DNA of 63,370 nucleotides from Candidatus Omnitrophota bacterium (GTDB lineage Bacteria; Omnitrophota; Omnitrophia; Omnitrophales; Aquincolibacteriaceae): positions 1-63,370 of the forward strand of contig JAZDJU010000010.1 of NCBI GenBank assembly GCA_043803685.1. The letters run 5' to 3'. Each line of letters begins with the position of its first letter. The first letter of the stretch is position 1. The notes below the pieces were generated by a model. The model had not been told where the DNA came from, ran no database searches, and saw only the letters and a program-made list of their open reading frames with translations. Below are positions 1 to 54,457 of this stretch, one piece after another. The translations under genes were made by a program, and so were the position numbers.

Positions 1-4
1 AGGC

Positions 5-480
5 TTGCATGCGGAAGTGGCGCGTCTCAAGGAACGGATCCTGGATGTGCTCGCCAAGAGCCCGGATGAAAAAGAGTATGTCGCCGCCACACGCAAGCTC
101 TCCCTGCTCAAGCGTCTATTCAGTCTTGAAATGACGCGTTCCGAGTACGAAGAGTTGCGGAATCTGCCTAGTTTATCCAAAGAGCTTGCGGTGGGACTAC
201 AGACTACAGACCAGAGACCAGAGACTAAAACGAAAGGCCTGCAGTCTTCAGTCTCCAGTCTTCAGTCTATTTTCGCGGATGCAGTCGAGTTTTACGAGAC
301 TGCCATCGTCCGCGAAAACAAGATGTTCGCCAACGCTCTGAAGAAAATGGACGAGCGGAAAGAAAAGAACGCCGTGATCGTGACCGGCGGTTTCCACGCC
401 GAAGGTCTCAAGAAACTTGCCGCTTCGCAGGGGTGTGCCTACATGCAGGTCACGCCGCGGATCAACGAGATCTCGAAACG
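5..480 (+). other. Domain of giant ORF: C-terminal part of a TraB/GumN/Tiki (EreA/ChaN-like) fold
   Basis: RENKM (311-325) followed by AVIVTGGFHAEGL (GGFH at 386-397) resembles the RNxxM...hhhGxxH-xGL signature. The rest of the domain lies outside the window. Confidence 0.5.
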
Positions 481-3400
481 CGATCATGAGATCTATCTTC
501 GCTCCATTTTTGGTGCTCGCGATTTTGAATCGTCCCAGATGGGCCAGCCGTTGATCGAAGACGCCTCCATGCGTCAGATCCTTGGTGCGAAGTTGGGTAG
601 TTGGCTTGCTTCCATCCGGGAACTTGTGAAGGGTCTTATTAATTCCGCTCCCGTCCTGGATCGGGCGTCACTTTCATCCGCTCTTTCGAATTCTTCCTTA
701 TTTGGCAACGTAGCCGCAGTTCGCTCGGAAGTTCGCGCCTCGCAGACATTCCTTTACGAGGCTCATGGTGTCCGGATCCATGATCCGGAATTATCCCAAG
801 CGGCCGGCCAGAATCAAATGGCGGAACTTGGTGAAATGCTTGAGGGTGTTGACAATCATAAGATCGCTAGCAATGTGGCCATGCAGCATTTTGCGGAAAT
901 AGCGTCAACATATCCCCGTTCTGTTCGGCAAGCTTTGTCGTTGGAGATCAGTTCCTCTATGCAGTCGCTGGAAGAGGACCCCAGCGGCAACAACGAAACT
1001 GAATTGAATGTTCTGCGCGCAAAGCGAAGGCTGCTGTCGGAGCCCGAATCTTTCGCGACTTCGGCGATCGCCAATCGCTCGGAAGTGCGTAAACTTGGGG
1101 AAGCGGAATTCTATTACAACGCCCATGGGAGCCGGATCCATGATCCAAAGCTAACCCAAAAAGCTGGCGAACAGCAAATGGCGGCGCTTAAAGAGATCCT
1201 CGAGGATGTTGACGGGAACACGATCCAAAGCTCTGAGGCCATGATCGATGTCGCAAAGAGGGTGGCGGAATACAGCCCTTCAGTTCGGAAAGCTTTGGCA
1301 GCGGAAGTCCTCGCTTCCATGGATGTGCTGGAAAGCGGCGCACTGCGTTCTGACAAGACTCAGAGGGAAGTTTTGGTCATGCAGCATCAGCTGCTGACCG
1401 CGGCCGAATCTTTCTTCATCACGGAAACCAGGAAGGCCGCCAGCCGCTCGGAAGTGCGTCAGCTAAAGGGATCAGAATTCTATTACAACGCTCATGGGAT
1501 CGAGATCCATGATCCAAAGCTAACCCAAAAAGCTGGCGAACAGCAAATGGCGGAGCTTAAAAAAATTCTCGAAGACGTTGACGGGAATACGATCCGAAGC
1601 CGTCAGGCCATGATCGATGTCGCGAAGAGGGTGGCGGAATACAGTCTTTCTGCTCGGAAAGCATTGTCAGCGAAGGTTCTCGCTTCTAGAAGGGAACTGG
1701 GAAGCGGCGCGTCTCCTTCTGACAAGACTCAGATAGACGTTTTGGCCGAACAGTATCTTATTCTGATTAGACCCGATTCTTTCTTTATGCAGGAAACCAA
1801 GACGGTTGCCCACCGTCCGGCAGCGAGTGTGCAGGCTATTAAAAAAGCTTTTGGCGCTTATAAGCCTTTTAGCGTGGAGGCCTTTGCTTCCCATTTTAAG
1901 GTCACGGCGGAGGATGCCCGGAAACAACTGGAGAAGATGTGGCGTGCCAGCGACAACATGGACAGGATCAAGAAAAACGGCGCGTATCTTTATTTGTATA
2001 GTCCGATCAGTGTCGCGGTCCAGATTGGGCCGGACGTGAGGCCCGAGGATGTGGCGGATGCTGCGCGAGTGGTGATCAACCATTCTGAAACCAAGGAATT
2101 TTTGGGTGTCACAGCCGAGAGCGCGAGGAAACAGTTGGATGAATTCCTTGCCGCCGGATTCAAAGTGGTTTTGGCGTTCGGCGATTTTCCTGTCACTTTG
2201 ACCAAGGATGGAAAAACAACGGATTTCGAAGCCATGGGGCTAAGGAAGTTTCCGACGGACCTTAAGGCGATTACAGACAAGTTCATGACCCAAACCCTGA
2301 AGTCGAAGGACAGATCGTACGAAACCCTGCGAAAGTTATATCAGGAAGCTGAGTTTATTAGGGAGGCTTCTATTGACCAGCTCATAGGGCAGTTCGGGGA
2401 ATATCTGAAATTGTTTGATTTTAATGAAGAAGAGTTTAGGAATGCTTCGGATCTCACTGCCAGCTTGAAGAAGGAGCATGATCTGAAGGCGAAGATTATT
2501 TCAGAGATAAGCACGAAAACAGAAATCGAGTATGAAATTGGAATTTTGTTTTCCGGGTTGAAGCCCGAAGACGTCAGGGATCTCATTAAGAAGGCGTATG
2601 AGCCGATCGAGGGGATCAAGACGGTTGCTATTTCTGAGAAACTGGCGGAATTCCGCCGGGCTTATACCGTTCAGGCGATCGCTAAGGCTGCGGGAATGAG
2701 CGAAGATCAGGTTGCGGTCCTTTACGGCGGGGGCGGGAATGTGAAGAATTTTGCCGGATTAAAAAAGGCTGGATATGGAGGCGCTTTTATCGGGAGAGCC
2801 TCAGCGCTCGCGAAGGCTGAACCCGGCAAAGATTCAACGGCCAATATCTCTTTTGCCGCGCAGGAAACGGGTGAGAGACTCACTACGATCTATAACGCAA
2901 AATCAACGCGTGCGCCATCGCCCGCCGAATATATGAGCGCCTACGCGGAACGTGGCGTCAATACAGAAAGCGGAGTGAAGATCATTCATGCCGTGAGCCG
3001 TCTTGATTATCGCGCCTGGCAAAGAGAGCTTTCCGGAGAAAAGGTGAGTTCGTTGTTTGAGGATGTCAGTCAGGTTGCGTCCCGTCCACAAGTCACGATC
3101 GTTGCCGGTGCGACGGAAGCCACGCAAGGGATTGGCGCGTATACGGCGCATATTCCTGCTGAGTTTTTGCGTGAAGCCGGAGTGACCCAGGCACTTGTCG
3201 ATCGGACAAAGCCGTATGCAGTCAAGCAGACGCTCAATCTGATCAACGCCGGAATTACGCCGGTTGTGTATGAGAATTGGGAAGGTGTCGCAGAATTTTT
3301 TAAAGCTCTTGGAGAAGAAAATTTAGGCAGCATCGTGGAAATGAATACCGCCGGCATATCCGGCCTGCGGATCACGCCCATTAACGCCCTCCGGCAATTT

Positions 3401-6400
3401 CAAGGCCAGCATCAAGGCGGAGCTGTGTCCAACCGTTCGGAACTGAGAGCGGAAGTGCTGCCGGAAGCGAAATGGATCGAGATCGCTGCCGACGAAGTGG
3501 CGATCAAGCGCGCTTTCGGGACGAATGGGATCCGTTCGGACGATATCGAGATCGACGGCCAGCGGCGCATTGCTGCGGGGACCGCAGACGTGCTGGCGGC
3601 TCAGTGGCGCAAGGCCCATCCGGGGACAGAATTGCCGTGGGTGATGGTGGGATTTGATCCTCGTCCGCAGGGCGATAATGGCTTTACTCCGGGCGAGATG
3701 AGCGAATCCAAAGCCGTCGCGGAGGTTTTTGCGGCCTATGGTTTCAAGGTGTTGTTCGTTCCGAAGGCTGTCGCGGCGCCTTTCATGATCTCGGCGTCCG
3801 GCGAGAACGTGCACCCGAGGGATATTTTTGCCGCCGTGATGAGAACGGCGAGCCACAACGAAGTGGTGGACCCGAAATCCGGCAAGCTGGTGTCCGGGTT
3901 TAAGTTGTTCATGTGGAATGCCCCCGCGGCGGACAGCTTTACGGGACTTATTTCCGCGAAGATCAATGACGCGGAATTTTCTAAAGAAGTGCCGGTGCTG
4001 AACTTCGATCAGGCGGTCATTGAAGGAAAGATCGTGGTGTCAAAAGATGGCGATAACGACGATCCGGATACCGTGGAATTCCGGCGCATGCAGAAAGCCT
4101 TTGATCTCAAAACGATCGGAGACAAGATCCGGGCGAAGTTCCCGGCTTTCAAGATCGCGCTCAATACGATGAATGGAGGCATGTCCCAGTTCGGCCCCCG
4201 CGTACTCCGGGCGATGGGTATTATCAACAATAATAAAGGCTTCTTGGCGTTCAACACGAAGCTCATGAACGATCCGTCCATGAAATCCCAAATGTTGGGT
4301 TGGGTGGAATATCAAGATGCGAATACAGGTGAAATGAAGAGAGTTCGTTTCGCGCCGGATCCGACGCGGGCCTGGATGCGGGGCAAGGATTATCAGGATT
4401 TCGTGGCCCAGGATCCGATGAAGACCCTCGCTCTTTTGATCGACGGGGACGCGGATCGCTTGGTGGCGGAACTCGGCAAAGAGATCATCCCGAACGAGAT
4501 CGGCATGCTCGCCGCTTATTATCTGGCGAAGTACAAAGGTCAAAAGGGGCACATTGTGCGTACGGTGCCGACGACGGGCGGGTTGGACGCGTTGGCGCAG
4601 GCGCTCGGACTCGGGAAGGTGGATGTGACTCCCGTGGGCTCAAAATGGTTTGCGGGTCCAAATAAATATTATGACAGCAATCTAAACGATGTCCTTGTGG
4701 CTGTGGAAGAGAGCGGCCACATTGTTTTCAACAAGAAAGGACAGCTCTTCTTTGATCATTCCATTGGTCTCGCGACGCTCATGCTCGAAATGATGGCTGA
4801 GACGGGAAAGACATGGCAGGAATTGTCGGACGAGATGTGGGCGTTCATTGAAGAAAAGACCGGACAAAAGCGGATCGCGACAGTGCGTGACGGGATCAGC
4901 AAAGAAGATGGCGCCGAGAATTATTATGCTCTCGCGTTGCGTCTCGGTAACCCGTCAGAGGATACGTTTCGGCGTGAATTTGCGACGAAAATGGAAGCAA
5001 CTCTCGCCAAGGCGGGAATTCCGTGGAAGGTTACGAATATGGATATAGCCGACGCGGGCGGCGCCCAGCTTCAGTTCGAAGGCGGGCGGAAGGTGTTCCC
5101 GCGAAAATCAGGAACGGACGGCAGTGTTCGTCTCTACGGCGAAGTGCTCGATACAGAGCGCGATCTGGTGCCTGTCCTGATGAAGAGCATGCGCGAAGTG
5201 ATGGATTTTTTTGTTTCCGCGCAGCGTTCGGAGATGAGAAAAAAGACGTATTTGGCCTCAGCGGCCCTTGGGATTCCAGAGATCGGTAAAAACCTTGCCT
5301 ATTCCGCGGGAGCGGCACTCAGAGCGGTGTTTTGGCCAAATATTATCGATATGAGAAAACAGGGAAAGAACGCGATGGTTCGTAACGACATCCCTTCAGC
5401 CAAAGGCGGAGCTGTGTCCAGCAAACGCTCCGAGGTGCGTGAAGGGGTGCTGCCGCGCGTTGATACGCCGAAGACCCCAGAATGGAAACAATTACGCGCA
5501 TTTGCCAAAGAAATGAAAAAGAAGGCGAATGCTCTCCGGGAACTTTTCCGGAATGATCCTGAGCGGGTGTCAAAGCTCACGATGAATTTGCGTGAGGATG
5601 TTGCATTCGATTTCTCCAAGCAGCGCATTACCGGACCGATTCTGGATACTCTTGTAGCGCTCGCCGAACGGACGGGTGTTTCCGAAAGCATTGAGAAAAT
5701 GTTCACGGGCGCCAGGATCAACGAGACGGAGAACCGCGCGGTGCTTCACGTGGCCCTTCGTAACGTAAAGCGCGATCCGGAAAGCGGCAAGCTCGTCGCA
5801 GCCAATGGACCGATTTTTGCGGACGGAAAAGATGTGATGCCTGGCGTGATCCAGGTGCTGGAACAGATGGAAGCCTTCGTTCAATCGATCCATTCCGGTA
5901 CGCGAGTGGGCTATACCAAAAAAAAGATCAAGAATATTGTCAATATGGGGATCGGAGGTTCGGATCTTGGCGGCAAAATGGCGACTCGTGCGCTCATTCC
6001 TTACCAGTTCAAGAGGAAAGATGGTGTGAACGTTTACTATGTTTCCAACGTGGACGGAACGGACTTTGCCGAAGTGGTCAAGAACCTGGATCCCGAAGAA
6101 ACGATGTTTGTGATCGCTTCCAAGACTTTCACAACAGCCGAAACGATGCAGAACGCGCGATCCGCCAAGGATTGGATCCTCCGGCACTATGGAGTTGATA
6201 CTTCGGATCAGAAAAAAGCAGACGCGGTGGTGAATGCGCACTTTATCGCTTTATCAACCGCTGCAAAACTGGTGCAGGAATTCGGGATCACTCCGGATGA
6301 AGAGCATATGTTCCCGTTCTGGGACTGGGTTGGCGGCCGTTATTCGGTGTGGTCCGCGATCGGATTGCCGCTTGCGACCTACATCGGATTCGATAATTTC

Positions 6401-9400
6401 CTGAAATTTCTCGAGGGCGCGCGATATGTCGACGAGCATTTCAGGACGAAGCCTCTTCGCGAGAACATTCCGGTGATTAAGGCATTGCTCAACATCTGGA
6501 ACGGAAATTTCCTCGGGGCGAGGTCTTTTGCTGTATTGCCCTACGATCAATATTTGAGCCTTTTCCCGGAATTCGCCCAGCAGTTCTTTATGGAGAGCAA
6601 CGGGAAGATCGCAAGCCGGCTCGGTCGATTCGTGCGCTATATCACGGGGCTTATCCTGTGGGGAGCCGCCGGGACGAACGGTCAGCATTCCTTCTACCAA
6701 CTCCTCCATCAGGGAACCCATCTGATACCGGCGGATTTCATCGGTGTCCTCAAGACCCATAATCCTTTGCCGGGGCATCACGAGGAGCTTTTCTCCAATG
6801 TGCCCGCCCAAACGGAAGCTCTTGCTTTTGGCGCTACCAAAGAAGAGGTCAAGGCGTTGCTTGAAAAGGACTTGAAGTACAAAGGACAAGACATTGATTG
6901 GCATGCCGCACAGCAGACCTTCCCTGGGAACAAGCCAACGACTACGATCGCGTTGGATGAAGTCAATCCCGAAACGTTGGGTATGCTGGTGGCCCTTTAT
7001 GAGCATCAGATCTTTGTCGAGAGTGTGGTCCTGAACATCTTTGCGTTCGATCAGTGGGGAGTGCAGCTCGGGAAAAAGGTTGCGCTTAAAGTGCGTGCTT
7101 TCTTGACTGGGGAAAGACCTCCGGAAGAAATCGCATCCGCAGGTATTTCCGCTTCGGGCGAGTGGCTGATCCGCAGATGGCTTACGCGTGGCGGTGGTTC
7201 TCAGGCGGGGGTTGAGTCACAAGGCGGAGCTGTGTCCGAGCAATTCGAGACGCGTCAGCAGGAAAGCCGGGAAATAACAAAAATGCGGCTGGCTTCGATC
7301 CTTAACGGCGTGACCGGAGAAAAGGCGGGCGATAATTTTTTCATGGGACTTGTTGAGGGTTGGGTGAAGGAGTTTCCTGGAGATCTTCGGAGCGAGGTTG
7401 CGGCGGAGATCTCGGCTGCCATGGGAATGCTGGACAAAAGACCTTTCGATGAAACTAGGCTGAAAGTTCTCGAGAAGCAAAGTGAGTTGCTTTCGAGCAA
7501 ACTTCCCGTTGCAGTAAAACAAGCTGACGCGAACCCATCACAAGTTGAGGAGCTTCAAGCATTCCTGAACGAACGGGTTACTCCGTCCACGATCGGGGTT
7601 TCGATGCTGATGAAGGCTGTTGAGAAAGATATGGAAAAATTCGCCCTGCCTTCTCGGGCAGTTCTCCTGGTGGAAGTCAAGGCTGCTATAGAGGAGCAGG
7701 AGCGCCTGCGTGTTGTCGGGACCCAACGGAGTATCATGGCTAAGCAGATTGAATTTCTCTCGCAGGGATCCGCGGATGTCGCCACCCGCTCGGAGGTGAG
7801 GAAGATCGTTGTAGCTGCGTCTGTCGTGGGAGCTCCGGAGATCGGAGCAAACCTCGTCAAGACCATTGTCCGGGAAGGCGCCGTTGTGTCTGGAGCGTGG
7901 AAGGGGAACGAACAGTTTCCTTCCGATGACGTGCAAGTAGTTTCCGGCGAGGGAAAACGTGACCAGAAGTCTAAGGGAAGCAAGCGCTCCGAGGTTCGGT
8001 TTGATGCGGGAAGGGAACCTTCGCCGTACGGTCCGGATGCTTCTCAGGAAGGGTTGAGGCCTCTTTATGAACGGATCGCTTGGGCGCGTGAGCATGCTCC
8101 GAGCTATACCAGGATCAAGAGGATCTACGCGTTTTCGGATCAAAAGCACGGTATGGATCCCAAGGACGCCATTTCTTTCGGCGTTGTGCTGGAAGGTAAT
8201 ACTTCCGCTGACAGCGATGATGTTCTAGTGATCAATCAGAACGCGTCCGTTATGGGCGGTATTTCTGCCGGAGTGCTTGAGCCGGGGACGCATGGTAGCG
8301 TTGCGGAAGCCATTGAGTTCTTCAACAAGAACGTCGCAGACAGCTTGGTGGGTTTGAATGTCTCCCGGCCGGACGAGATCACTGCGAAGATCCTTGAGAT
8401 CGACGAGACCTTACGCAATTTGGCGCGGAGGAGCGATTTGTCGAGCACGAAGACGAAGCAGCGCTTCTCCTATATCGGAGCGGAGATCTCTATCGGTGTG
8501 TCCATGGCCGCCACGTTTGCTCTCGCAGAGGCGTTGGGTGTGCCGACCGAGGTCGTTCTTAACTATCGCTACAATGAATACACGCTCTCGACGGGTTTAG
8601 CGAAAGCGGTTCGCCCGATGAGCATTCCCGTGAATTACAGTGTGGTTTGGGAAGGCGGCAAGCACGGCGTGGCCAAGTATTTAAGCGAACTGATCAGCGA
8701 GGGGGTCATCCAGGACGGTAGCCGTTTCCCGGAAAGATTCAAGGATCAGGCGCTGATCGCCAAGAAGGACAAGAGCATTCTCCTGGCGGCGGTTCCTCCT
8801 CAAGAGCTCCAGATCATGGTCCTTGCTCCTGAATGGGAACAGGCTCGTCTGATCGGGATCAAGTTGACCAAGCTTTATCAGGCAAAACTGAAAGAGCATG
8901 GGATCAAGACCAAGTATGGCGCGGAATCCGGCTTCACAACGGAGCAATTGCGCGACAAGGCTGGAAACCTGATCGATCTGGATCTGGTGTTGGATATTTT
9001 GGGTGAGGCCGTGGACGCTTTGCCGGCTAATGAGGCAAAGTATGTGCGCTATGCGTTGGATATTGCTGCTTCCGAGATGTATATCCCGGAGATCGACATG
9101 TATTACGTCGGTCCCAGCGCGGCCAAGAATGCCGATGGTTTGGTGACGAACGAAGAGTTCACCCAGTACAAGTTGGCATTGTTCCAAAAGTACGGTCGCT
9201 TTATCTCTGTCGAAGATTGGGCCACCGAAGATGAAATAGATCATTGGGAAGGTGCAAAGGCCATCATGGGTTCCATGATCCAGATGGGGGATGATAACAC
9301 TGTCTCACGGGCTGACATGATCAAGAAATTTTCTGCGGTCATGAATGCCCATCTCCAGAAGCCGAATCAGTCGGCTGAAGAGCATGCAGGGATCGAAGCG

Positions 9401-19922: not shown

Positions 19923-21551
<1,629 letters not shown>

Positions 21552-21956: not shown

Positions 21957-23711
<1,755 letters not shown>

Positions 23712-43845: not shown

Positions 43846-45252
43846 TTAGACCAGGATGCGGGTGATGAAAAAGCCGGGGAAAATGCCCAGGGCCAACACG
43901 CCCAGGAACAGGATCCAGAGAGTCACGGACAGAGCTCTGGAAGGAGATGGAAAGGCTGGTCCTGTCGGAGGCGTCAGGTACATGAGACGGATGACCCGGA
44001 AGTAATAGTAGGCCGCGATCACGCTATTGACCGCCGCGATGATCGAAAGTGTGAAAAGTTTCGCATGGATGGCCGCCGCGAACACGTAGTATTTTCCGAT
44101 GAAACCCGCGAGCGGCGGAAGCCCGGCCAGGGAAAGAAGGAAGACGGTGAGCATGGCCGCGGCCACAGGCGAGCGTTGGGAAAGTCCGGAGTAGCTCTCC
44201 AGAGAGCTGTTCCGGGTCTCGCCCTCGACAAAGAGAACGACGGCAAAGGCTCCAAGGTTCGTTAAAAGATAAGTAAGAAGATAGATCAGGACCGCGCTAC
44301 GTCCCAGGATGGAGAACGCCGCGAGGCCCATGAGGATATAACCCGCCTGCGCGATGCTTGAATAGGCCAGGAATCGTTTGATGTTCGACTGGGACACGGC
44401 CGTGATGTTGCCGAGGGTCATCGTCAAGATCGAGAAGACCACAAGCATGGGGCTCCATATGCTGTAAAAATTCAGGAAGATCATGTCGAGTACGCGCGTC
44501 AAGACCGCGAATCCGAGCGCTTTGGGAGCGACGGTGAGGAAGGCCGTGACCGGGGTCGGAGCGCCTTCATAAACGTCCGGTGCCCACATATGAAAAGGCG
44601 CCATGGAAATCTTGAAACCCAGTCCGACAAAAAAGAAAAGAACGGATACGATCGCCAGAGGTTTGAACGGCGCGTAAAAGAGAGCATTCCCGATCACCGG
44701 GAGCTCGAGCGACCCGGCAATACCGTAAAGGAGGGACATGCCGTAAAGCATGATCCCCGAGCACACACTTCCGAAGAGGAGATATTTGACAGCGGCTTCC
44801 TTGGACTTCGGGTCGTTCTTCAGGAATCCCACAAGAAGGTACGAGAGCAGGGAAACGAATTCAATACTCATAAAGATCATGAGTAGGTTATTGGCCGCAG
44901 CGACCGTGATGAGGGCGAAAGCCATGAAAAGGAAAAGGCCGTAGAATTCGCCGTCATAGCGGTTCTTGAGCGGGGCGTAACCGAGTGAGATCATAAGCGT
45001 GATCCCCACAGCTCCCAGCGCGAGGTAGCGGAAAAAATGCGCGAAGGCATCCAGTTGGAACATGCCGAAAAAAAGTGGCAAGGGTTTCACGGGGGCTTGT
45101 ACGAGACACAAGGCGAGCACGATCACAAGCAGGGCGAATTCCCCGACGAGTTTCTTCTGTTTCAGAAAGAAATCCATCGTAAAGGCGACAAATGCGCCGC
45201 CCAGAAGAACCAGTTCCGGGATGAAATATTTTAAACTTTCAACAGCGTTCAT
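43846..45252 (-). CDS. nuoN: Complex I subunit N
   Basis: EAAVKY, FKISMAPFHMWAPDVYEGAP, KRFLAYSSI. Confidence 0.95.
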   Translation of the reverse strand: MNAVESLKYFIPELVLLGGAFVAFTMDFFLKQKKLVGEFALLVIVLALCLVQAPVKPLPLFFGMFQLDAFAHFFRYLALGAVGITLMISLGYAPLKNRYDGEFYGLFLFMAFALITVAAANNLLMIFMSIEFVSLLSYLLVGFLKNDPKSKEAAVKYLLFGSVCSGIMLYGMSLLYGIAGSLELPVIGNALFYAPFKPLAIVSVLFFFVGLGFKISMAPFHMWAPDVYEGAPTPVTAFLTVAPKALGFAVLTRVLDMIFLNFYSIWSPMLVVFSILTMTLGNITAVSQSNIKRFLAYSSIAQAGYILMGLAAFSILGRSAVLIYLLTYLLTNLGAFAVVLFVEGETRNSSLESYSGLSQRSPVAAAMLTVFLLSLAGLPPLAGFIGKYYVFAAAIHAKLFTLSIIAAVNSVIAAYYYFRVIRLMYLTPPTGPAFPSPSRALSVTLWILFLGVLALGIFPGFFITRILV

Positions 45253-45271
45253 TTTCTATCTCGATTTTTAT

Positions 45272-45352
45272 GTCATTCCCGCGGAAGCGGGAATCCAGAC
45301 TGGATCCCCGATAACCCTAAAGGGCTACTTCGCTGAAGCATTCGTGGATGAC
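45272..45352. repeat. REP-like element, dRS3-like core, second copy
   Basis: gtcattcccgcggaagcgggaatccag-ac-tggatccccg...ggatgac. Confidence 0.75.
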
Positions 45353-45379
45353 GATTTTTGAACTTGTTTTGGAGGCCAT

Positions 45380-46858
45380 TTACCCAACCTTGATTGTTTT
45401 AAGTAAAGCATCGAGCGTCGGGATCATGTAATCCAGGATGATCCTCGGATAAAGACCGATTCCGAGGATGAGGACCATGAGCGGGACGAGCGTGAGAATC
45501 TCCCGGAAATTGATGTCCGTAAGAGAGTCCCACTTTGGATTGAATTTTCCAAGCAGGACGCGTTGGATCATATAGAGAAGATAAGCCGCCGCGAGAATGA
45601 TCCCGATCGTGGAGAGTCCGGTGACGACCTTGGAATATTGATAAGAGCCTAGGAGCGCCAGGAATTCGCTGATGAATCCGGAAAGACCCGGAAGCCCGAG
45701 CGATGCGAGCGCGAAAAAGATCAGAAACCCCGAATAAGCCGGTACTTTTGCGCCGAGCCCTCCGAAATCGTTCAGGTCACGGGAATGAGCTCGGTCATAA
45801 AGAACGCCGACCAGCAAGAAGAGCCCGCCCGTGATGGTTCCGTGCGTGAACATCTGGAGCATGGCTCCGCGGAAACCGTTCGCGTTCAGGGCCGCGAGGC
45901 CGAGAAGGACAAATCCCATGTGACTCACGCTCGAGTAGGCGACCATTTTCTTGAAATCCGTTTGCGCGAGGGCCACAAAACCACCGTACACGATCCCGAT
46001 GATGGCCAGGACCGCCATCGCCGGTTGGAACCAATGCGTGGCTTCCGGGAAAAGAGGATAGCTGAAACGGAAAAATCCGTAGGTGCCCATCTTAAGGAGG
46101 ACGCCCGCGAGGATCACGCTGATCGGCGTTGGAGCTTCCACGTGCGCGTCCGGCAGCCAGGTGTGGAACGGGAAGATCGGCACCTTGATCGCAAAGCCGA
46201 GAAAGAACGCCATGAAAACGACCTGTTGGAAAAGAAGGCTCCGGGGCATGCCGACCAGCAGGGTCATGTCGAAGGTGCGCGGCGCGGCGGCGAAATAAAC
46301 GCCAAGGATCCCGAGGAGCATAAAAAGACTGCCCGCAAGCGTGTACAGGAAAAACTTGATCGCGGCATACTCGCGGCGCGGCCCGCCCCAGATCCCGATC
46401 AGGAAATACATGGGGACTAGCACGACTTCCCAAAGGACATAAAAAAGGAAAAGGTCCAGAGCGAGGAACGTTCCCATCATGCCGGTCTCAAGCAGGAGAT
46501 ACAAGAAGTAATATTCCTTTTCGCGGCCGTCTTTCACGCGGACGTGGGGGAAGGAAGCGAGGCACGCGATGAGGGAAATGATCGCTGTGAGGAACACCAT
46601 GGGAAAGCTGATCCCGTCCGTCCCGAGAAGGTATTGCACGCCGAACTGCGGGATCCAGGACGCGCGTTCCATCATCTGGAAGCCGGCTTGCGCGGGTTGG
46701 AAGATGGTCAGAGCGTAACAGGCGAGCGCCATGACGACGCCGGTGGTGGCGAGCGCGATCCACTTGATCGAAGACGCGGCGCTTTTAGGCACGAACAAGA
46801 TCGCGAAGGCGCCGATCAAGGGCGTAAAGATGATCCAGGAAAGAAGATGCGATGTCAT
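45380..46858 (-). CDS. nuoM: Complex I subunit M
   Basis: AAIKFFLYT, PFHTWLPDAHVEAP, AYSSVSHMG. Confidence 0.95.
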   Translation of the reverse strand: MTSHLLSWIIFTPLIGAFAILFVPKSAASSIKWIALATTGVVMALACYALTIFQPAQAGFQMMERASWIPQFGVQYLLGTDGISFPMVFLTAIISLIACLASFPHVRVKDGREKEYYFLYLLLETGMMGTFLALDLFLFYVLWEVVLVPMYFLIGIWGGPRREYAAIKFFLYTLAGSLFMLLGILGVYFAAAPRTFDMTLLVGMPRSLLFQQVVFMAFFLGFAIKVPIFPFHTWLPDAHVEAPTPISVILAGVLLKMGTYGFFRFSYPLFPEATHWFQPAMAVLAIIGIVYGGFVALAQTDFKKMVAYSSVSHMGFVLLGLAALNANGFRGAMLQMFTHGTITGGLFLLVGVLYDRAHSRDLNDFGGLGAKVPAYSGFLIFFALASLGLPGLSGFISEFLALLGSYQYSKVVTGLSTIGIILAAAYLLYMIQRVLLGKFNPKWDSLTDINFREILTLVPLMVLILGIGLYPRIILDYMIPTLDALLKTIKVG

Positions 46859-46950
46859 AATGACTCCTTTTGAGTTCGGAGTTTAGAGCGGGGAGTTTGG
46901 AGTAAAAGCTTTTGGCTCTATCTCCCGACTCCGAACTACAGGCTCCGAAC

Positions 46951-48897
46951 TTATGCTAGTTTCAATTCCCAAATGAGAAAAACCATCAATACAAGAAACA
47001 CCAACAGTAAGTAATTCTGCACCAATCCCGTCTGAAGGCGCTTGGTGATCGAATTTAAAAAATGGACCAGCGTCCCCATGAAGTTCACGAGGGCATCCAC
47101 GATGTAAGTGTCGATCCATTGTTTCACGCCGCTTAGGAACATCGTTCCTCGTCCCGCGCTGTTCACGGCGCCGTCGATCACCGCCGCGTCAAAGCCGAAC
47201 AGAACCCGGCCGAGCGCGACGAAAGGTCTGATGATGTAAGTGGAGTAGAGTTCATCGAGATAGAATTTGTTGAACGACAGGCGGTAGAGGACAGGGAAGG
47301 TCTTTGCGACGGCTCCCGCCCAGTGTTTTTGCTTCAGATACATGATCCCGGCGAGTGTGATCCCGAGAACTGCTACGGCGATCGAGCAGGCCATGACGAA
47401 AGCGGAAGGCTCATATTCCGGATGATGGACCATGTGCGCCATAAATTGTTGGAACCAGTGATGCATGAAAGGAGACCCGGGGATACCGATCACGGCGGAG
47501 CCTATCGCCAGACACCAGAGCGGCACGGTCATGAGGGCCGGGGATTCATGGGCATGGACCTTGGCGTTCCGGGCCGCGCCAAAAAAGGTCAGGAAAATAA
47601 GACGGAACATATAGAAGGCGGTCATGAAAGCCGTGAGAAGGAGAATGCCGAAGACCCAGAAATGGCCGGACCCAAAGGCCGCGAGCAGGATCTCGTCTTT
47701 GGACCAGAATCCGGAAAGCGGTGGGACGCCGGCAAGGGCCAGACTTGCGATGATGAAGGTGACCGCGGTGTGCGGCATTTTCTTGAAAAGTCCGCCCATC
47801 TCACGGATGTCCTGGACATGCGTTCCGTGGATCACGCTTCCGGCGCCGAGGAAGAGCAGGGCTTTGAAAAAGGCGTGCGTGATGAGATGGAACGTTCCCG
47901 CGCCAAGCCCCGAAAGCCCGAGCGCGGTCACCATATAGCCGAGTTGTGAGATCGTGGAATAAGCGAGAACGCGTTTGATATCGTTCTGGGTTAGCGCGAT
48001 AAAGGCGGCCATGAACGAGGTGATCGTTCCAATCGCGATCACGACCGGAAGAACATTCGGGATGGCCATGAAAAGGGTGAAAGACCGCGCGACAAGGAAA
48101 ACGCCGGCTGCCACCATCGTCGCGGCATGGATGAGCGCGCTGACAGGTGTCGGGCCTTCCATGGCGTCCGGCAACCAAACGTGCAAAGGGAACTGCGCGG
48201 ACTTTCCGATCGTACCGCAAAAAATGAGGAGCGCCGCGACCGAAAGGAGGCCCGTGTTCAAAGCTGTGTGAGCAACGTGGGCTCCCGTAAAGATCGTATT
48301 CATCTCCGAGAAATTCAACGTGCCGATCGCTGAGAAAAGCGTGAGAAAACCGAGGAGAAAACCGACATCGCCGACGCGTGTCGTGAGAAATGCCTTCAGG
48401 GAGGCGTTCGCCGCCGAGGGCTTCTCGAAGTAAAAACCGATCAAAAGATAGGAACAGAGTCCCATGATCTCCCACGCCATGAAGAAGAGGAGGTAATTGT
48501 CCGAAACGACGAGCGTGAGCATGGCGGACATAAAGAGAGAAACATACGCGAAGAACCGGCTGTAGCGCGGATCGCCGTGCATGTAGCCTGAGGCGTAGAC
48601 CTGGATGAGCGTGCCAACGATCGTGACCATGAAAAGGAGCGTCGCGGAAAGAGGGTCCATCAAGTAGCCGAACTTCAGCGGCGTCGTGCCGAGCATAAGC
48701 CAGGTCCCTTGATGAGCGAAATGCGCGCCCTGAAAGACCGCCCAACAGACCGGTAGCGAGATCGCGCAGGCGAGAGCGCTCGTAGCGATAGAACACAAAG
48801 CCGCGCGTTCCTTGAGCCAGCGGCCGGCCAGGATATTTGCCACAAAGGCTATAAAGGGCAAAAGAGGTACGAGGAAGATCTGATCGGCGGTTACCAT
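46951..48897 (-). CDS. nuoL: Complex I subunit L
   Basis: [42 protein letters not shown]. Confidence 0.96.
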
Positions 48898-49205
48898 TTC
48901 AGTAAATGGACCTCATCGGCTTGAACGGTTTTCCGGACCCGGTAAAGGGCGAGTACGATGGCGAGTCCCACGGCGGCCGCGGCTGCGGCGATCGCGATCA
49001 CAAAAAGAGCGAAGATCTGTCCCGTTTCGGGGGAAAGCGACGTGTATTTCGAGAACGCGATCAAATTGATATTGGCGGCGTTCAGCATGAGCTCGATTGA
49101 GATCAAAATGCCGATGATGTTCCGCCGCACAAGTGCGCCGTAAACACCGATCGCGAAAAGGAACAAGGAAAAGACGAGGATGTGAGAGAGAGGAAGGAGG
49201 GTCAT
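48891..49205 (-). CDS. nuoK: Complex I subunit K
   Basis: [21 protein letters not shown]. Confidence 0.93.
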
Positions 49206-49726
49206 TGGGACTTCTCTTCCGGATCTTTCTTGGCGATGATCACGGTTCCGATCAACGCGGCGATCAGGATGACCGAGATCACCTCGAACGGGAACACATA
49301 AGTCCCCATCAGGGCTTTGCCGAGTCCCATCACCGAAACCTTGGCTTTAAGCGCGGTCGGGGTTACGGGCCACGGGGTTTTCAGGATCAGACCTGTGAGC
49401 AGTACCACAAACCCTGCGAGGCCCGCGATCGCGAGCGGGCTTTGCGAATTATTCTGGCGGACGGTTTTCCCCATGAGATGCTCGGTGAGCATGATGGCGA
49501 AAATGACAAGTGTGACCACCGCGCCGACATAAAGAAGGATCTGGATCGCGGCAAGATATTCGGCCTGAAGGACTACGTAAAGGGCTGCGGTCCCGATCAA
49601 TGCCGCCGCGAGGCACAGCGCGCAGTGGAAAAGATTGCGTAGCGTGACCACGCCCAAGGCGAACACAAGGATCGCGGCCATCACGGCGTAGGTCCCGAAT
49701 TTCGCGGCTATTTCCAGGATCGGCAT
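49202..49726 (-). CDS. nuoJ: Complex I subunit J
   Basis: [19 protein letters not shown]. Confidence 0.93.
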
Positions 49727-49729
49727 CGC

Positions 49730-50902
49730 TTAGCTCTCCAAAGGATAATGACGCTGTTCAGGGATGAACGTGCTGTTGAGTTTGACCAAGCCCCACAGTG
49801 AAACCGCCAGAACCGGGATCGAGATCAGCCATCCCGTCAAGTGCGGTACGAAATGCCAAAGTCCGGTCAAAAGAATGTTGATGAGCGTGAGCGGCAGAAG
49901 GAATTTCCATGCGAATCCCATCAGATGGTCCACGCGGAACCTCGGGAACGTGCCCCGGAACCAGATCATCACGCAGATCAGGACGAATGTTTTTCCGAAG
50001 AACCAGAGCCATGAGGGAAGGAACGGACCCTGCCAACCGCCGAGGAAAAGTGTCGTCGCGATGCCGCAAAGCGTGAACGCGTTCATGTACTCGGCCATAT
50101 AAAAGAGAGCGAACTTCATGCCGCTGTATTCGGTATGAAAACCCGCCACAAGCTCCGATTCCGCTTCCGGAAGATCGAACGGCGGACGGTTGCATTCTGC
50201 CGTCGCGCAAAGAAAGAAAACGATGAATCCCACGATACCCCAGGGCGTAAAGATAAACCAGTGCAGGTCATAGTCGCCGGTCTGCGCGAGGACGATCGTG
50301 TTGGTCGCGAGACTTTGGCTCATCATAATGGCCGGGACGACGGCCAAGGTCATCGGGACTTCGTAGGAGATCATCTGGGCCGCTGTGCGCATTCCGCCCA
50401 AGAGTGAATATTTGTTCCGCGAAGCCCAGCTCCCCATGAAGATCGGAAGGATGGTGATGGATGAAACTGCGATGAAATAAAGAAGTCCGATATTCAGGTT
50501 GGATGCGGTCATGCGCTCGCCGAAAGGCACCACCAGGAAAAGCATGAGCGCGGGCACCACGATCGCGATGGGCGCGAGGAGATGAACGATCTTGTCGGCG
50601 TTCGCGGGGACAATGTCCTCTTTGGTGAACATCTTGATGCCGTCGGCGATGGGCTGTAAAAGCCCCCATTTGCCGACGCGGTTCGGGCCGTACCGGTTCT
50701 GGATGCGGCCGATCAGTTTTCGTTCAAGAAGCGTCAGGTACATCATGATCACCGGTCCCATGCACAGGATTGCGACGCCGCTGATCGTGATCGACGCGAG
50801 CACCACGATCCAATCGGGGAGGAATCGCCCCAGAAGGGCGAGGATCCACGCCTTGGCCGTTACGAAGATCATGTCGACGTAGAATTCGATGCCTCGGATC
50901 AT
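49730..50902 (-). CDS. nuoH: Complex I subunit H
   Basis: ERK..RIQNRYGPNRVG, PFDLPEAESELVAGFHTEYS. Confidence 0.96.
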   Translation of the reverse strand: MIRGIEFYVDMIFVTAKAWILALLGRFLPDWIVVLASITISGVAILCMGPVIMMYLTLLERKLIGRIQNRYGPNRVGKWGLLQPIADGIKMFTKEDIVPANADKIVHLLAPIAIVVPALMLFLVVPFGERMTASNLNIGLLYFIAVSSITILPIFMGSWASRNKYSLLGGMRTAAQMISYEVPMTLAVVPAIMMSQSLATNTIVLAQTGDYDLHWFIFTPWGIVGFIVFFLCATAECNRPPFDLPEAESELVAGFHTEYSGMKFALFYMAEYMNAFTLCGIATTLFLGGWQGPFLPSWLWFFGKTFVLICVMIWFRGTFPRFRVDHLMGFAWKFLLPLTLINILLTGLWHFVPHLTGWLISIPVLAVSLWGLVKLNSTFIPEQRHYPLES

Positions 50903-51492
50903 TGGGGCCCTTGTGCCGTAGTCTGCCCTTGCCCGCCAGCGCTTTGTGGCGGGGGCGGCGGAACAACCGCCTTTTTCTTTTCTTCTGCCGCCTTGCGTTT
51001 CTGGTCAATGGCGGAGGCCAGGGTCGGACGGACCTTCTTGAAATATTCGTTCGATTTCAAAAGCGCTTCCTTGTGGCGAACGAGACCTACTTGACGTTCT
51101 GGGGCCGTCACTTCAAAGGCATGGTCCATGAAGATCGAATCGAACGGGCAGACCTCTTCACACATGCCGCAGTTCATGCAAAGTCCGTAATCCACATCGA
51201 AGACTGCAGGTTTTCGCGTCGGCTTGCCTGCGGCATCGATTGCCATCTCAATATGAATACATTTGGTCGGGCATTCCCGCTCGCAGATCCCGCACGCCAC
51301 GCAGCGGATCTTCTCTGCGGAGCCGTCATGAACAAGAAAAGGGAAGTTCCTGAAATTCTCGACCGCTTTTTCGCGTTCCTCCGGGTACTGGACCGTGAAG
51401 ATCCCGCCCTCGTCCAGTTTCCGGAAATAAGAGGTCAGGAAATTCTTGAACGTGACCCCCATGCCTTTGAGCACTCCCATACCGAAGATCAT
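50899..51492 (-). CDS. nuoI: Complex I subunit I (2x[4Fe-4S])
   Basis: [31 protein letters not shown]. The start overlaps the nuoD stop. Confidence 0.93.
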
Positions 51493-52637
51493 CGGTCTGT
51501 CTCCCCGAGCACGATGTCGATGCTTCCGAGAATGATGATCGCGTCGGCGATCTTCTGGCCGAGGCACATTTCCTCAAGTACGGTCAGATTGATGAGGGAC
51601 GGGGCGCGCACATGGTAGCGCCACGGCTGAGGCGTGCCATCGCTGACAAGATAGAATCCGAGCTCGCCTTTCGGCGATTCAACGCGGGCATAGGCTTCCC
51701 CCACCGGCGGCTTGAAACTGCGGGGGTTCTTGAGCGTCGGGGCCGCTTTTTTGTTCACGATCTCGCCTTGCGGGATCTTGGTGAGGGCCTGGTCGAGGAT
51801 TTTCAGGCTCTCGCGGATCTCAAGCACGCGGACATAAAAACGGTCATACACATCGCCTTTTTGCCCGAGCGGGATCTTGAAATCGAAAAGTTTGTAGAGG
51901 CTGTAGCCATCGACTTTCCGGATATCATAATTCACGCCCGAGGCGCGGAGCACGGGGCCGGTGATGCCGGCGTTCGTGGCTGTTTCTCCGGACAGAATGC
52001 CAACATTCTGACAGCGCATGCAAAGGATCTCGTTTTTCGTAAGGAGATCCTCGAATTCCTTGAGGAATGCCGGGAATTTCGCGACGATCTTCCGGATCGC
52101 GGCGAGATCCTCATTCGCGAGGTCGCGTTTGACGCCGCCGAAGCGGAAATAATTATTCATCAGGCGTGAACCCGTGATCGATTCAAAAAGGTCGAGGATC
52201 CTTTCCCGTTCGCGGAAGGCGTAGAGGAGGGGCGTGAAAAAAGCGCCGAGGTCGTTTAACATGAAACCGATCACCGTGATGTGGTTCACGATGCGCGCCA
52301 GTTCTGCCATGATGATGCGTAAATACTCCGCTCGTTCGGGAACCTCGATCGCCGCGAGTTTCTCCACCGCGAGTACGTAGCCGAAATTGTTCGCGAGGGC
52401 GTTCACATAATCGAGCCGGTCCGTGTAAGGCAGGATCGCCGCGTAGGGAAGGTTCTCCGCGATCTGCTCATGGTTCCGGTGCAGATAGCCGAAGACCGGC
52501 TTCAACCCGCAGATCTTTTCGCCCTCCAGCTGCACCGTCATCCTGAAAACGCCGTGGGTCGACGGATGCTGAGGTCCGAAATTGATCTCGAGGAGCGAGG
52601 CATTATCTGTATTTTTCAAATCAAGAGTCTGTTTCAT
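51489..52637 (-). CDS. nuoD: Complex I subunit D
   Basis: [39 protein letters not shown]. No NiFe CxxC motifs. Confidence 0.96.
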
Positions 52638-52748
52638 GAGCCCATCTATTTTTCAACGATAGTTAAACAGCTTTTTCCATGTTTCGAGGGGAACGGTGAA
52701 CGGGAAACGCAAAGCTGTTTCGTTCAACGTTACCCGTTTTCCGCGAGC

Positions 52749-53336
52749 TCAGCTCCGCGGTTTTTCCGGTTTCCCGGCGATCGCGCGCCGATTCGCGGCC
52801 GCGAGTTCTTTGGCTTTCGCCTTCATTTCGTCCGGGACTTGAACCCCGCGAGCTTCGAGCCACGCGACGTCCGCGGTTTCCAGAATCTCTGTATCTTCCT
52901 GTTCGTAATCCTTGCGGAGGGGAGATCCCTGAAACTCATCCCACATAAAAAGCCGGCGAAGATCGGGATGTCCTTCATAAATAATGCCAAACGTGTCAAA
53001 GGCTTCGCGTTCCTGGAGTCCGGCGCTCAGGTACACCTGCACAAGGGAAGGAACCCGCGCGTTATTTTTTGTAACGCGGACTCGGAGTACGACCGGGCCC
53101 TGTTTTTTTGCCATCGAATACAGATGATAAACCGATTCCAAATAGGTCAGATAATCTGCCCCTGTCACGGAGGAGAGATAATCCAGGAGGAATTTCGGGC
53201 TTTCCTTCAAAAAGAGAGCAACCCTCGGGAGATCCTTCGGATCTTCAAGTAAGATAGAGTCCCGGACAGGGCGGAGTTTGACGTCCGGCAAGCGTGTCTC
53301 GAGCTCTTTTTTGACTTCCTCTATAGAGATAACCAT
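52749..53336 (-). CDS. nuoC: Complex I subunit C
   Basis: EREAFDTFGIIYEGHPDLRR, PLRKDY. Confidence 0.94.
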   Translation of the reverse strand: MVISIEEVKKELETRLPDVKLRPVRDSILLEDPKDLPRVALFLKESPKFLLDYLSSVTGADYLTYLESVYHLYSMAKKQGPVVLRVRVTKNNARVPSLVQVYLSAGLQEREAFDTFGIIYEGHPDLRRLFMWDEFQGSPLRKDYEQEDTEILETADVAWLEARGVQVPDEMKAKAKELAAANRRAIAGKPEKPRS

Positions 53337-53337
53337 A

Positions 53338-54069
53338 TTAGGTGGCGACTCCGGGCGCGGCAGGCTTAGCGGCTGGGACAAGTTCCAGGTCCGGGGCTTT
53401 TTGTTTCTTTCCGACGAGGATCGTTTGTCCGTAATGTTCCGTGCGGGGGTCTTTCTTGGATGGTTGCCAAACCTCCGGATTGAATTTCGGGATGAGCCCG
53501 TGGGGCCCAAGCTCAGGCACCGGAAATTCCCGTTTCAGGCCTTTTTGATACCACTCCGCTTTCAGGATCTCCTGCGAGGCGATCTTTTTCTGAAGCTCCA
53601 TAAGGCCGTGGAGTAATGCCTCGGGACGTGGGGGACACCCGGGAAGATGGACATCGACCGGGATGTAGCGATCGATCCCGCGCAAAACGTTGTAACCGTC
53701 GATAAAAGGTCCGCCCGAGATCGCGCATGCGCCCATGGTGAGCACGTATTTGGGTTCGGGCATCTGATTGTAGAGGCGGACGACCTGGGGAGCCATTTTC
53801 TTGGTGACGGTTCCGGAGATGATCATGAGGTCGGCCTGGCGCGGTGACGCGCGAAAAAGCTCCGCGCCAAACCGGGCAATATCATAGCGGGCGCAGGCCG
53901 CGGCGATCATCTCGAACGCGCAACAGGCGAGGCCGAACTGCATGGGCCAGATCGAGGATCGGCGACCCCAATTGTAGAGGAAATCGAGGCTTGTCCAGAG
54001 CACGCCTTTTTGGGCGAGTTCCGCACGAAGCGAGCCGTCCTCTTGAGAGATGTTCTTTGTGAAAGCCAT
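53338..54069 (-). CDS. nuoB: Complex I subunit B
   Basis: [28 protein letters not shown]. Confidence 0.96.
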
Positions 54070-54085
54070 AGGATTCCTTAGGATC

Positions 54086-54457
54086 TTATTCCCATTCGAG
54101 CATTTTCTTTTTCCAGGCATAAACGAGGCCAAAAGCGAGGATGGCAATGAAAATGACCATTTCCACGAAGGCGAAAAGCCCGAGTTTCTTAAAGGCCACC
54201 GCCCAGGGGTAGATAAAGACCGTTTCGATGTCAAAAATGACGAAAATCAGGGCGAAAAGGTAATATTGCACATGATATTGCATCCAGGGGTCGCCTTTGG
54301 AGGCCAGGCCGCATTCGTAAGTCGCCTGTTTCTCGGCCGAGGGCTTCCGGGGTGCCAGGAACCAGGCCAGGACGAGGGGGATCGCGGCGAAAATAAGCGC
54401 GAAAACGAAGAAAATGCCGACAAAAAGGTACTGATAGAAATAGGAGGTGCTAGACAT
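54086..54457 (-). CDS. nuoA: Complex I subunit A
   Basis: [26 protein letters not shown]. Confidence 0.95.

Follow-up and report, generated by a model that had tools for sequence, protein, structure and literature searches.

A modular open reading frame punctuated by a pentapeptide

The window analysed here is the 63,370-nucleotide (nt) stretch at positions 1 to 63,370 of contig JAZDJU010000010.1 from a Candidatus Omnitrophota bacterium. It begins with an open reading frame (ORF) on the forward strand (2..11872, open at the window's 5' end; all features below lie on this strand unless stated otherwise) that encodes 3,956 amino acids (aa) of a large modular protein, along which the pentapeptide RSE[VLM]R recurs nine times. 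The copies start at nt 722, 1076, 1445, 3434, 5225, 5426, 7787, 7985 and 11171 (aa 241, 359, 482, 1145, 1742, 1809, 2596, 2662 and 3724), positions that the initial annotation had recorded correctly together with the segment lengths that follow from them (113, 118, 658, 592, 62, 782, 61, 1057 and 228 aa). Composition predicts 0.012 copies, and the maximum in 20,000 shuffles was 1. Three of the nine head tandem repeats of ~120 aa and are thus not independent; the other six stand in unrelated contexts and are still far above expectation. The broader form R[SA]ExR does not occur in the 15,351 residues that the window's other 48 ORFs encode. Codons vary between the copies, as had been noted, and the motif is kept as a peptide, not as DNA. 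None of the nine lies inside a detected Pfam or NCBIfam enzyme match, in agreement with their earlier placement at module boundaries and never within an enzyme fold.

The ORF constitutes the 3' eleven kilobases of its gene. Its first 240 residues (2..721) correspond to the C-terminal part of a ~570-aa domain, hereafter the N-domain, that resembles hydrolases of the Tiki/ChaN superfamily (PF04187 E 0.005 at aa 53-134, below the cutoff) and contains an invariant VTGGFH (nt 380-397). Only ~350-430 N-terminal residues are therefore missing, as alignment to the complete relative P0003 and to related loci indicates, and the full protein would measure ~4,300 aa. The protein had been described as giant; with complete relatives of 4,281 and 4,199 aa, it does not reach tens of thousands of residues. 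Guanine-cytosine (GC) content is level along the whole ORF, and hydropathy (maximum 1.69) reveals no transmembrane helix in it.

Directly behind the N-domain, RSEVR at 722..736 marks the first junction and heads the first of three tandem, helical-looking repeats of ~118-123 aa (722..1813; the others are headed by RSEVR at 1076 and 1445), for which no family was found. A divergent triosephosphate isomerase (TPI)-like region follows at 2039..3208 (Pfam TIM E 1.7e-11, aa 849-938; PDB TPI chains E 4.5e-4 and weaker; NCBIfam sub-threshold). The winged helix-turn-helix that had been assigned to the same segment corresponds to a single sub-threshold EutK_C match (E 9e-4) and is doubtful. RSELR at 3434..3448, with GGAVSN in front, precedes a phosphohexomutase-like module (3482..5212, aa 1161-1737; Pfam PGM_PMM_III at aa 1497-1613) that keeps TASHN, DGDADR, EESGH and RKSGTDG, four signatures that are invariant or near-invariant columns of a 57-sequence alignment. 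RSEMR (5225..5239) and RSEVR (5426..5440, with GGAVSS in front) then enclose a 62-aa spacer (5240..5425), and 7 aa after the end of the second of these motifs begins the model of a canonical glucose-6-phosphate isomerase (PGI) module (5462..7123). It scores 677.9 bits against a cutoff of 492 for the NCBIfam PGI equivalog NF001211 (aa 1821-2374, profile positions 5-525 of 544), with a Pfam PGI match of E 3.5e-183 at aa 1870-2370. Behind it, GGAVSEQFETRQQESREITK (7223..7282) appears to be a decayed junction, about where P0003 has RSEVR (the alignment end is approximate), so that PGI is still attached to the two helical repeats that follow. A GGAVS lead-in precedes this site, as it does two intact motifs.

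A second spacer, of 61 aa (7802..7984), is bounded by RSEVR at 7787..7801 and at 7985..7999. The two spacers have a short G-x-PEIG-x-NL in common and are otherwise barely alike (E 1.7-1.9), and no counterparts of them were found among the sequences compared. Next comes a divergent enolase-like module (8297..9487; Pfam Enolase aa 2766-3161, with Enolase_C 5.5e-14 and Enolase_N 1.9e-4; PDB enolases E 4e-12; TIGR01060 below its cutoff), in the order N then C. Enolase_C stands ahead of Enolase_N in P0003 (aa 2809-3300) and in segment 13019-16321 of locus L040, which suggests a circularly permuted enolase-like module in these two relatives. The conserved module that follows (9557..11107, aa ~3186-3702) is 40% identical to a module of L040 and has no family. 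It had been called GlpX, an identity rejected here, with 0 Pfam families at E<=1 (aa 3170-3726), 0 matches in a PDB profile search and no usable match in the ESM Atlas. The last motif, RSEVR at 11171..11185, lies ahead of a C-terminal domain (11255..11869) ending in ...GRSA, whose residues, the last ~205 of the protein, are homologous to the C-termini of P0003 and L015; the ESM Atlas offered no usable match for this domain. Of the earlier enzyme calls, PGI is canonical, phosphohexomutase, TPI and enolase are divergent, and GlpX finds no support.

Distribution and strictness of the motif

A protein search for longer relatives covered lengths of 2,803-5,000 aa, and a scan of genome contigs with the N-domain yielded 205 relatives, the best 80 loci of which supply the counts given below. 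Relatives of the N-domain come from metagenome-assembled genomes of Omnitrophota, Elusimicrobia and Planctomycetia. The complete P0003 (4,281 aa) contains nine RSExR and P0007 (4,199 aa) contains 23 R[AG]ExR, mostly RAE[LVAT]R, and in both proteins the motif occupies junctions orthologous to those flanking the mutase module of the window. P0004-P0006 have a mutase module 70-71% identical to that of the window and no motif. Scanning related genomes, which had been put forward as a check, found at least three R[SA]ExR in the cargo region of 33 of the 80 related ORFs. The cargo of these 33 ORFs holds 192 copies in 75,911 residues, against 4.3 expected (~45-fold), and seven large neighbouring ORFs (at least 1,000 aa) hold 27 in 18,056 residues, against 0.76 expected; the figure for 164 ordinary neighbouring ORFs (<1,000 aa) is 3 in 53,086 residues, against 1.9 expected. 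Cargo families in the relatives include epimerase, ADK, FGGY, PanB and CsrA. Large motif-bearing ORFs in tandem on the same strand are found at loci L001, L002, L009, L019 and L020 (upstream) and at L018, L026 and L076 (downstream). At L018 and L026 the signal peptide and the Tiki-like domain make up a short ORF of their own, and a distinct motif-bearing ORF comes after it; the hydrolase domain can thus be encoded as an independent protein.

The presence of the motif at orthologous junctions in independent assemblies (P0003, P0007, P0009-P0011 and the 33 loci) bears on a trivial explanation, namely that the copies reflect chance, a repeat-driven count or an assembly chimera. Such an artefact might be suspected from an ORF that is cut by the contig end and has three of its nine copies in one tandem repeat family. 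Set against the independent assemblies, the excess among the six non-repeat copies and the even GC content, its probability is negligible.

RSE.R is also the top pattern returned by an unbiased gapped-pentamer enrichment in these ORFs. The motif is strict: 203 instances of R[SA]ExR compare with 7 variants that have K in first position, 4 with K in last position, 3 with D for E and 2 with G, T or C for S/A, and the K-for-R and D-for-E variants are at background level. At x, V is the most frequent residue (65), ahead of L (36), M (33), A (24), I (12) and T (10). Each protein is consistent in its use of S or A and in its residue at x, as in the window (9/9 S, 7/9 V), in P0007 (22/22 A), in P0019, where RSESR occurs nine times, and in L042, where RSEMR occurs six times. 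Flanks of 191 instances show no conservation beyond small residues at -1, -2 and +5.

The codons of the 203 motifs allow a reading at the level of nucleic acid, in which the x codon would be an internal translation start, or the element would mark a site of mRNA processing or of the recombination that shuffles modules. The first Arg is encoded by CGY in 82% of cases (background 43%), Ser by TCN in 96% (69%) and Val at x by GTG in 60% (32%). Most of this skew may be explained by single first-base exchanges between S and A and among V, M and L, however, while the codons of the last Arg, all six in use, follow background, both Glu codons occur and Rfam finds nothing in the window, all of which makes a nucleic-acid signal very unlikely. 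The skew of the first Arg is not covered by the S/A or V/M exchanges. Internal starts were rejected as a candidate because only 88 of the 203 x codons are NTG, so that a start codon is not required.

Junctions, modules and free-standing counterparts

Homology blocks drawn from 36 proteins (E<=1e-10, at least 100 aa, reciprocal pairs counted twice) relate the motif to the edges of modules. Half of the cargo blocks (19/38) begin within 5 aa of a motif, against 3.4% under random placement, and 8/38 end within 5 aa of one, against 2.3%. Module order varies between proteins, which suggests that modules are shuffled along with their leading motif. No family is split across a motif in 109 inter-motif segments from 17 ORFs, and complete models of PanB, CsrA, epimerase and other families fall within single segments; in one relative, a 300-aa segment contains, at residues 8-278, nearly the whole PanB profile (positions 1-258 of 259).

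The mutase region of the window (aa 1130-1760) was searched against 1.84 billion representatives, with 394 matches at E<=1e-3, of which 22 among the best 150 were examined. Free-standing P0008 (585 aa, 69% identical) and P0012 (583 aa), each with a Met start, correspond exactly to window aa 1161-1737, a span that falls between the motifs at 1145 and 1742. P0010 and P0011 are composed of a signal peptide, ~38 residues, RSE[VA]R (aa 66/67), the mutase, RSEAR, short motif-bounded pieces and a C-terminal domain of ~110 aa ending in ...KSA, and P0010 also has a PGI module. Inter-motif segments (n=198) have a median length of 245 aa (interquartile range 109-488); 34 of them measure at most 70 aa and ten at most 20 aa, and tandem sites lie 4-10 aa apart.

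The surroundings of the motif are linker-like. In the flanks of 229 motifs, disorder-promoting residues are enriched (0.71/0.72 vs 0.66) and bulky hydrophobics depleted (0.27 vs 0.32; p<1e-8 for each), and in an AlphaFold2 (AF2) model of L006 the first motif is predicted to open a coil of pLDDT <50 just after the last helix of the N-domain.

Other junction codes occur among the relatives. In five Omnitrophota ORFs with 0 R[SA]ExR, [GA]xSLG occurs 3-9 times; no protein combines the two codes, and the first [GA]xSLG copy lies 85-145 aa behind GGFH, the range of most first R[SA]ExR copies. GARL/AARL (GARL[AS]) is present in 7-12 copies in P0013-P0016 and flanks the mutase module in P0014-P0016. 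A further 20 related ORFs are without any punctuation motif, and unbiased enrichment detected no junction code in the long ORFs of Elusimicrobia and Planctomycetia. In a tree of 55 N-domains, which omits 25 loci with incomplete or ambiguous N-termini, all 23 R[SA]ExR rows belong to one clade of 33 (support 96/90), and the other main clade, of 20, contains 0.

Linker-like surroundings and recurrence between unrelated folds are what a structural element, such as a charged helix cap or hinge that requires no dedicated reader, would also present. Were the role structural, exchanges of R to K and of E to D should be tolerated, whereas both are at background; chemically unrelated motifs occupy the same junctions in sister lineages, the flanks have no conserved sequence, and the single modelled copy is placed in a low-confidence coil. 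A purely structural linker is accordingly improbable. The strictness of the motif, its restriction to large modular ORFs, its place at module starts and its replacement by other codes point instead to a site read by a specific, co-evolving partner, and R[SA]ExR is, judged from sequence comparison, a junction-specific recognition site.

N-terminal hydrolase-like domain and C-terminal tail

The complete N-terminus is seen in P0003 and P0004, in which a signal-peptide-like segment is followed by the ~570-aa domain with the elements IHIQxAH ... LEGA ... R ... VTGGFH. All 66 ORFs with a complete N-terminus have a basic, hydrophobic, small-residue start (judged by eye), and the distance from GGFH to the first motif is 59-310 aa, mostly 85-145, in 32 of the 33 motif-rich relatives listed. 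H70, E98 and H501 are invariant in 55/55 N-domains. PF04187 (ChaN, Tiki superfamily) matches 20 of the 55 at E<=0.1, over the C-terminal half of the model only, and one of them exceeds the gathering score (30.2 vs 27.7 bits).

The 28-residue spacing of the His-Glu pair equals that in Bcr135 (H85/E113) and in the MARTX effector RRSP (H3902/E3930), the latter being a TIKI-family sequence-specific endopeptidase according to the available text of the source (PMC6254334). By its PF04187 match, its His...Glu pair 28 apart and its C-terminal GxxH His, the N-domain would resemble the TIKI/TraB/ChaN/erythromycin-esterase superfamily; it differs in a ~340-residue helical insertion and in its fusion to a signal peptide and a train of modules, and the fold match is unconfirmed. 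An AF2 model of a relative's N-domain (pLDDT 75.8, pTM 0.71) contains this insertion. In the model the catalytic-type residues follow predicted strands and may be equivalent to the TIKI His-Glu pair and second His.

At the other end of the protein, the final residue is A in 18 of 24 long ORFs that run to a stop codon, mostly as ...[SA]A, and likewise in 21 of 41 representative proteins >1,000 aa. The tail takes the form ...[K/R/Q][S/A]A-COOH behind an amphipathic-looking stretch, motif-less Elusimicrobia ORFs included, and is carried by L001, L004, L009, L015, L019, L023, L028, L029, L078, P0003 and P0009-P0016. It looks like a conserved C-terminal signal.

Processing site or recognition tag

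R[SA]ExR may be an endoproteolytic processing site at which the modules of a secreted-type precursor are released, the most probable of the readings and one to which we assign a probability of about one half. The N-domain, the signal-like start and the C-terminal tail lay beyond the view of the initial annotation, and with them the picture becomes that of a secreted multi-cargo precursor. Such a precursor would consist, in order, of a signal-peptide-like start, a Tiki/ChaN-type hydrolase domain, variable autonomous modules and a C-terminal domain ending in ...SA. The cargo train of the window would be made up of three small repeats, a TPI-like module, a phosphohexomutase, PGI, an enolase-like module and one of no known family. 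The N-terminal segments suggest that the precursor would be exported. The R-[S/A]-E-x-R (x mostly V/L/M/A) with which a module begins at its N-terminal edge would serve as the cut site, cutting would free the modules as separate proteins, and the precursor's own N-terminal hydrolase domain, as a candidate enzyme, would cut the first site in cis and the others in trans.

Processing is favoured by the tandem sites, the short two-site spacers, the protein-sized pieces and the free-standing equivalents of single pieces, and also by the conserved hydrolase domain, with intact catalytic residues, directly ahead of the first site. Neither the 43 neighbouring genes scanned nor a gene-cluster analysis revealed a conserved protease or secretion gene nearby, and the absence of a separate protease gene is counted for processing by an on-board enzyme. 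As that enzyme the Tiki-like domain is a candidate only, and a tentative one.

Export would be an odd fate for cargo that depends on ATP or RNA, among it PFK, adenylate kinase, CsrA, helicases and histidine kinases. Several observations weigh against processing by this route. In P0010 and P0011 the motif lies ~38 aa behind the signal-peptide cleavage site, where separation seems needless, an arrangement that fits a tag equally, and in some proteins it lies 5-9 residues before the C-terminus, where a cut would free a short tail only. Motif type tracks the N-domain tree, a pattern that shared descent alone could yield. As to the hydrolase, its link to the Tiki superfamily is weak, with a single member over the Pfam cutoff. 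Foldseek returned 0 PDB matches at E<=1e-3 for an N-domain model that is dominated by the helical insertion, which leaves the Tiki fold assignment unconfirmed, and a PDB profile search with the N-domain gave chance-level ferritin matches only and no relative. Nor does the first motif occupy the putative active site in the AF2 model. The Tiki-like domain also heads 20 motif-less ORFs, including all the long ones of Elusimicrobia and Planctomycetia, so that it does not by itself imply the motif, and there are motif-bearing proteins that lack it (P0010, P0011 and the large neighbouring ORFs).

Some of these points suit a recognition tag, cleaved as well or not at all, that would mark each module for an export, sorting or chaperone system and might act as a licence for a second translocation, in packaging or in delivery to another cell. 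The motif goes with module starts more than with module ends, P0010 and P0011 require no separation, and signal-like starts together with a conserved tail lead one to expect sorting machinery; strictness would be expected of a binding site no less than of a cleavage site. Closely spaced tandem copies and 60-aa spacers with two copies are, however, more typical of processing sites, copies next to the C-terminus head no module, and no candidate receptor is present among the 43 neighbouring genes. A tag is regarded as the main rival explanation and as a less probable one than processing. The initial annotation had offered both, a precursor cut at the motif or a tag. A junction site for a specific factor is borne out by the strictness of the motif, its presence in 33 of the 80 ORFs, the block starts, the free-standing homologues and the alternative motifs, whereas cleavage is a step that we infer.

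A bolder extension, argued by analogy with PEXEL and rather unlikely, would make the motif a cut site and a delivery licence at once, with epibiotic or predatory Omnitrophota passing a kit of processed enzymes to a prey or host and rewiring its carbon metabolism. After Sec export, the precursor's own Tiki-like protease would cut this multi-effector precursor into a kit of phosphohexomutase, PGI, enolase, PFK, adenylate kinase, CsrA, helicases and two-component modules, and sister lineages would run the same system with [GA]xSLG or GARL[AS].

Surroundings in the window

The remainder of the window holds ordinary bacterial genes, among them two HSP20 genes, two GroEL paralogues, a nuo operon and two-component systems, and has no tRNA or Rfam match. 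The two HSP20 genes are in tandem directly downstream of the megaprotein ORF (12128-13463), and the two GroEL-family paralogues lie a few kilobases further on, on the reverse strand (19923-21551 and 21957-23690). A connection of these chaperone genes to the large protein is possible; no HSP20- or GroEL-like neighbours were seen at the related loci. The complex I (nuo) cluster at 43846-54234, also on the reverse strand, encodes chains N, M, L, J and H and the 49-kDa and 20-kDa subunits. Complex I of Omnitrophota is termed fragmentary in the available text of one preprint (Nielsen & Lui 2026 preprint).

Relation to known systems

The polyproteins of picornaviruses (3C) and potyviruses (NIa) have a strict, lineage-varying site between autonomous proteins, short spacers and a protease within the chain. 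By analogy, the megaproteins share with them a lineage-specific short motif, spacer peptides and a hydrolase in the same chain, and differ in that the gene is cellular and has cellular neighbours, the candidate protease fold is unrelated and cleavage would have to be assumed. In the PEXEL system of Plasmodium (RxLxE/Q/D) one motif is cleaved and at the same time licenses export, and oomycete RxLR is a host-targeting motif. The Arg-led five-residue motif a few tens of residues behind the signal peptide of P0010 and P0011 (aa 66/67) may be likened to both, a likeness that spans other organisms and another sequence; R[SA]ExR is moreover repeated before every module.

MARTX toxins are cut after Leu. 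The megaproteins resemble them as large, apparently secreted proteins of unrelated modules with a putative on-board protease for the linkers between modules, and the MARTX effector RRSP belongs to the TIKI family (PMC6254334, available text). The differences are several. Pfam detects no Peptidase_C80 in the window ORF, P0003, P0004, P0006, P0007 or the 109 cargo segments, and no RTX-type repeats; there are no type I secretion genes among the 43 neighbours; the start of the family is Sec-like by eye and not a signal of type I only; the junctions are a strict pentapeptide; and the cargo consists of metabolic and regulatory enzymes, not of known cytotoxic effectors. The system is, in its logic and by analogy, a bacterial modular precursor with a lineage-specific junction code, comparable to MARTX toxins and viral polyproteins.

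Fusions of TPI, PGI, phosphoglucomutase, FBPase and aldolase in giant proteins of Omnitrophota have already been reported in two preprints (West-Roberts 2023 preprint; Nielsen & Lui 2026 preprint). The available text of the second defines a 'multi-enzyme metabolic cluster' class of long Omnitrophota proteins (Nielsen & Lui 2026 preprint), in which many distinct Pfam families tile one chain and none dominates, and the window ORF is tiled in this way by TIM, PGM_PMM, PGI and Enolase. The Archaeovorin-type giants (West-Roberts 2023 preprint), in the text available, share with it the Omnitrophota setting, the many cytoplasm-type enzyme domains per chain and a predicted extracellular location. They measure at least 30,000 aa, far above the window protein (3,956 aa plus the ~350-430 missing, hence ~4.3 kaa), and of their domains the sugar-phosphate ones are present in the window ORF and the core GT, MT, GH and NUDIX set was undetected there.

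That no such system had been described, as the initial annotation stated, therefore holds for the motif and not for the fused central-metabolism enzymes. Literature searches on the motif, on Omnitrophota giants and on bacterial polyproteins found no description of an R[SA]ExR junction motif. The searched text of the two preprints contains no mention of a junction motif, a Tiki-like N-domain or an ...SA tail, and that of one has 0 occurrences of 'motif', 'linker', 'processing' and 'cleav' (Nielsen & Lui 2026 preprint).

Implications for the huge proteins of Omnitrophota

Such proteins might work either as single chains or, after cutting, as many products. In the text available, cleavage of such giants into smaller products was posed as a hypothesis, with C39 or S8 peptidases suggested, and the missing information on cleavage points blocked even computational analysis (West-Roberts 2023 preprint). 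The junction code supplies concrete candidate cut sites, and R[SA]ExR is, on sequence grounds, a strong though unproven candidate for the long-sought cutting sites of these proteins. It also provides a rule by which such proteins may be split into units ahead of annotation and structure prediction. Cutting at these sites would mean that Omnitrophota possess a bacterial polyprotein system for ordinary metabolic enzymes, with a protease candidate of its own from the TIKI superfamily, and would leave to be explained why modules of cytoplasm type that depend on ATP or RNA come after a signal peptide. Should the sites stay uncut, a pentapeptide tag in front of every module of a secreted protein would represent an undescribed signal for sorting or assembly.

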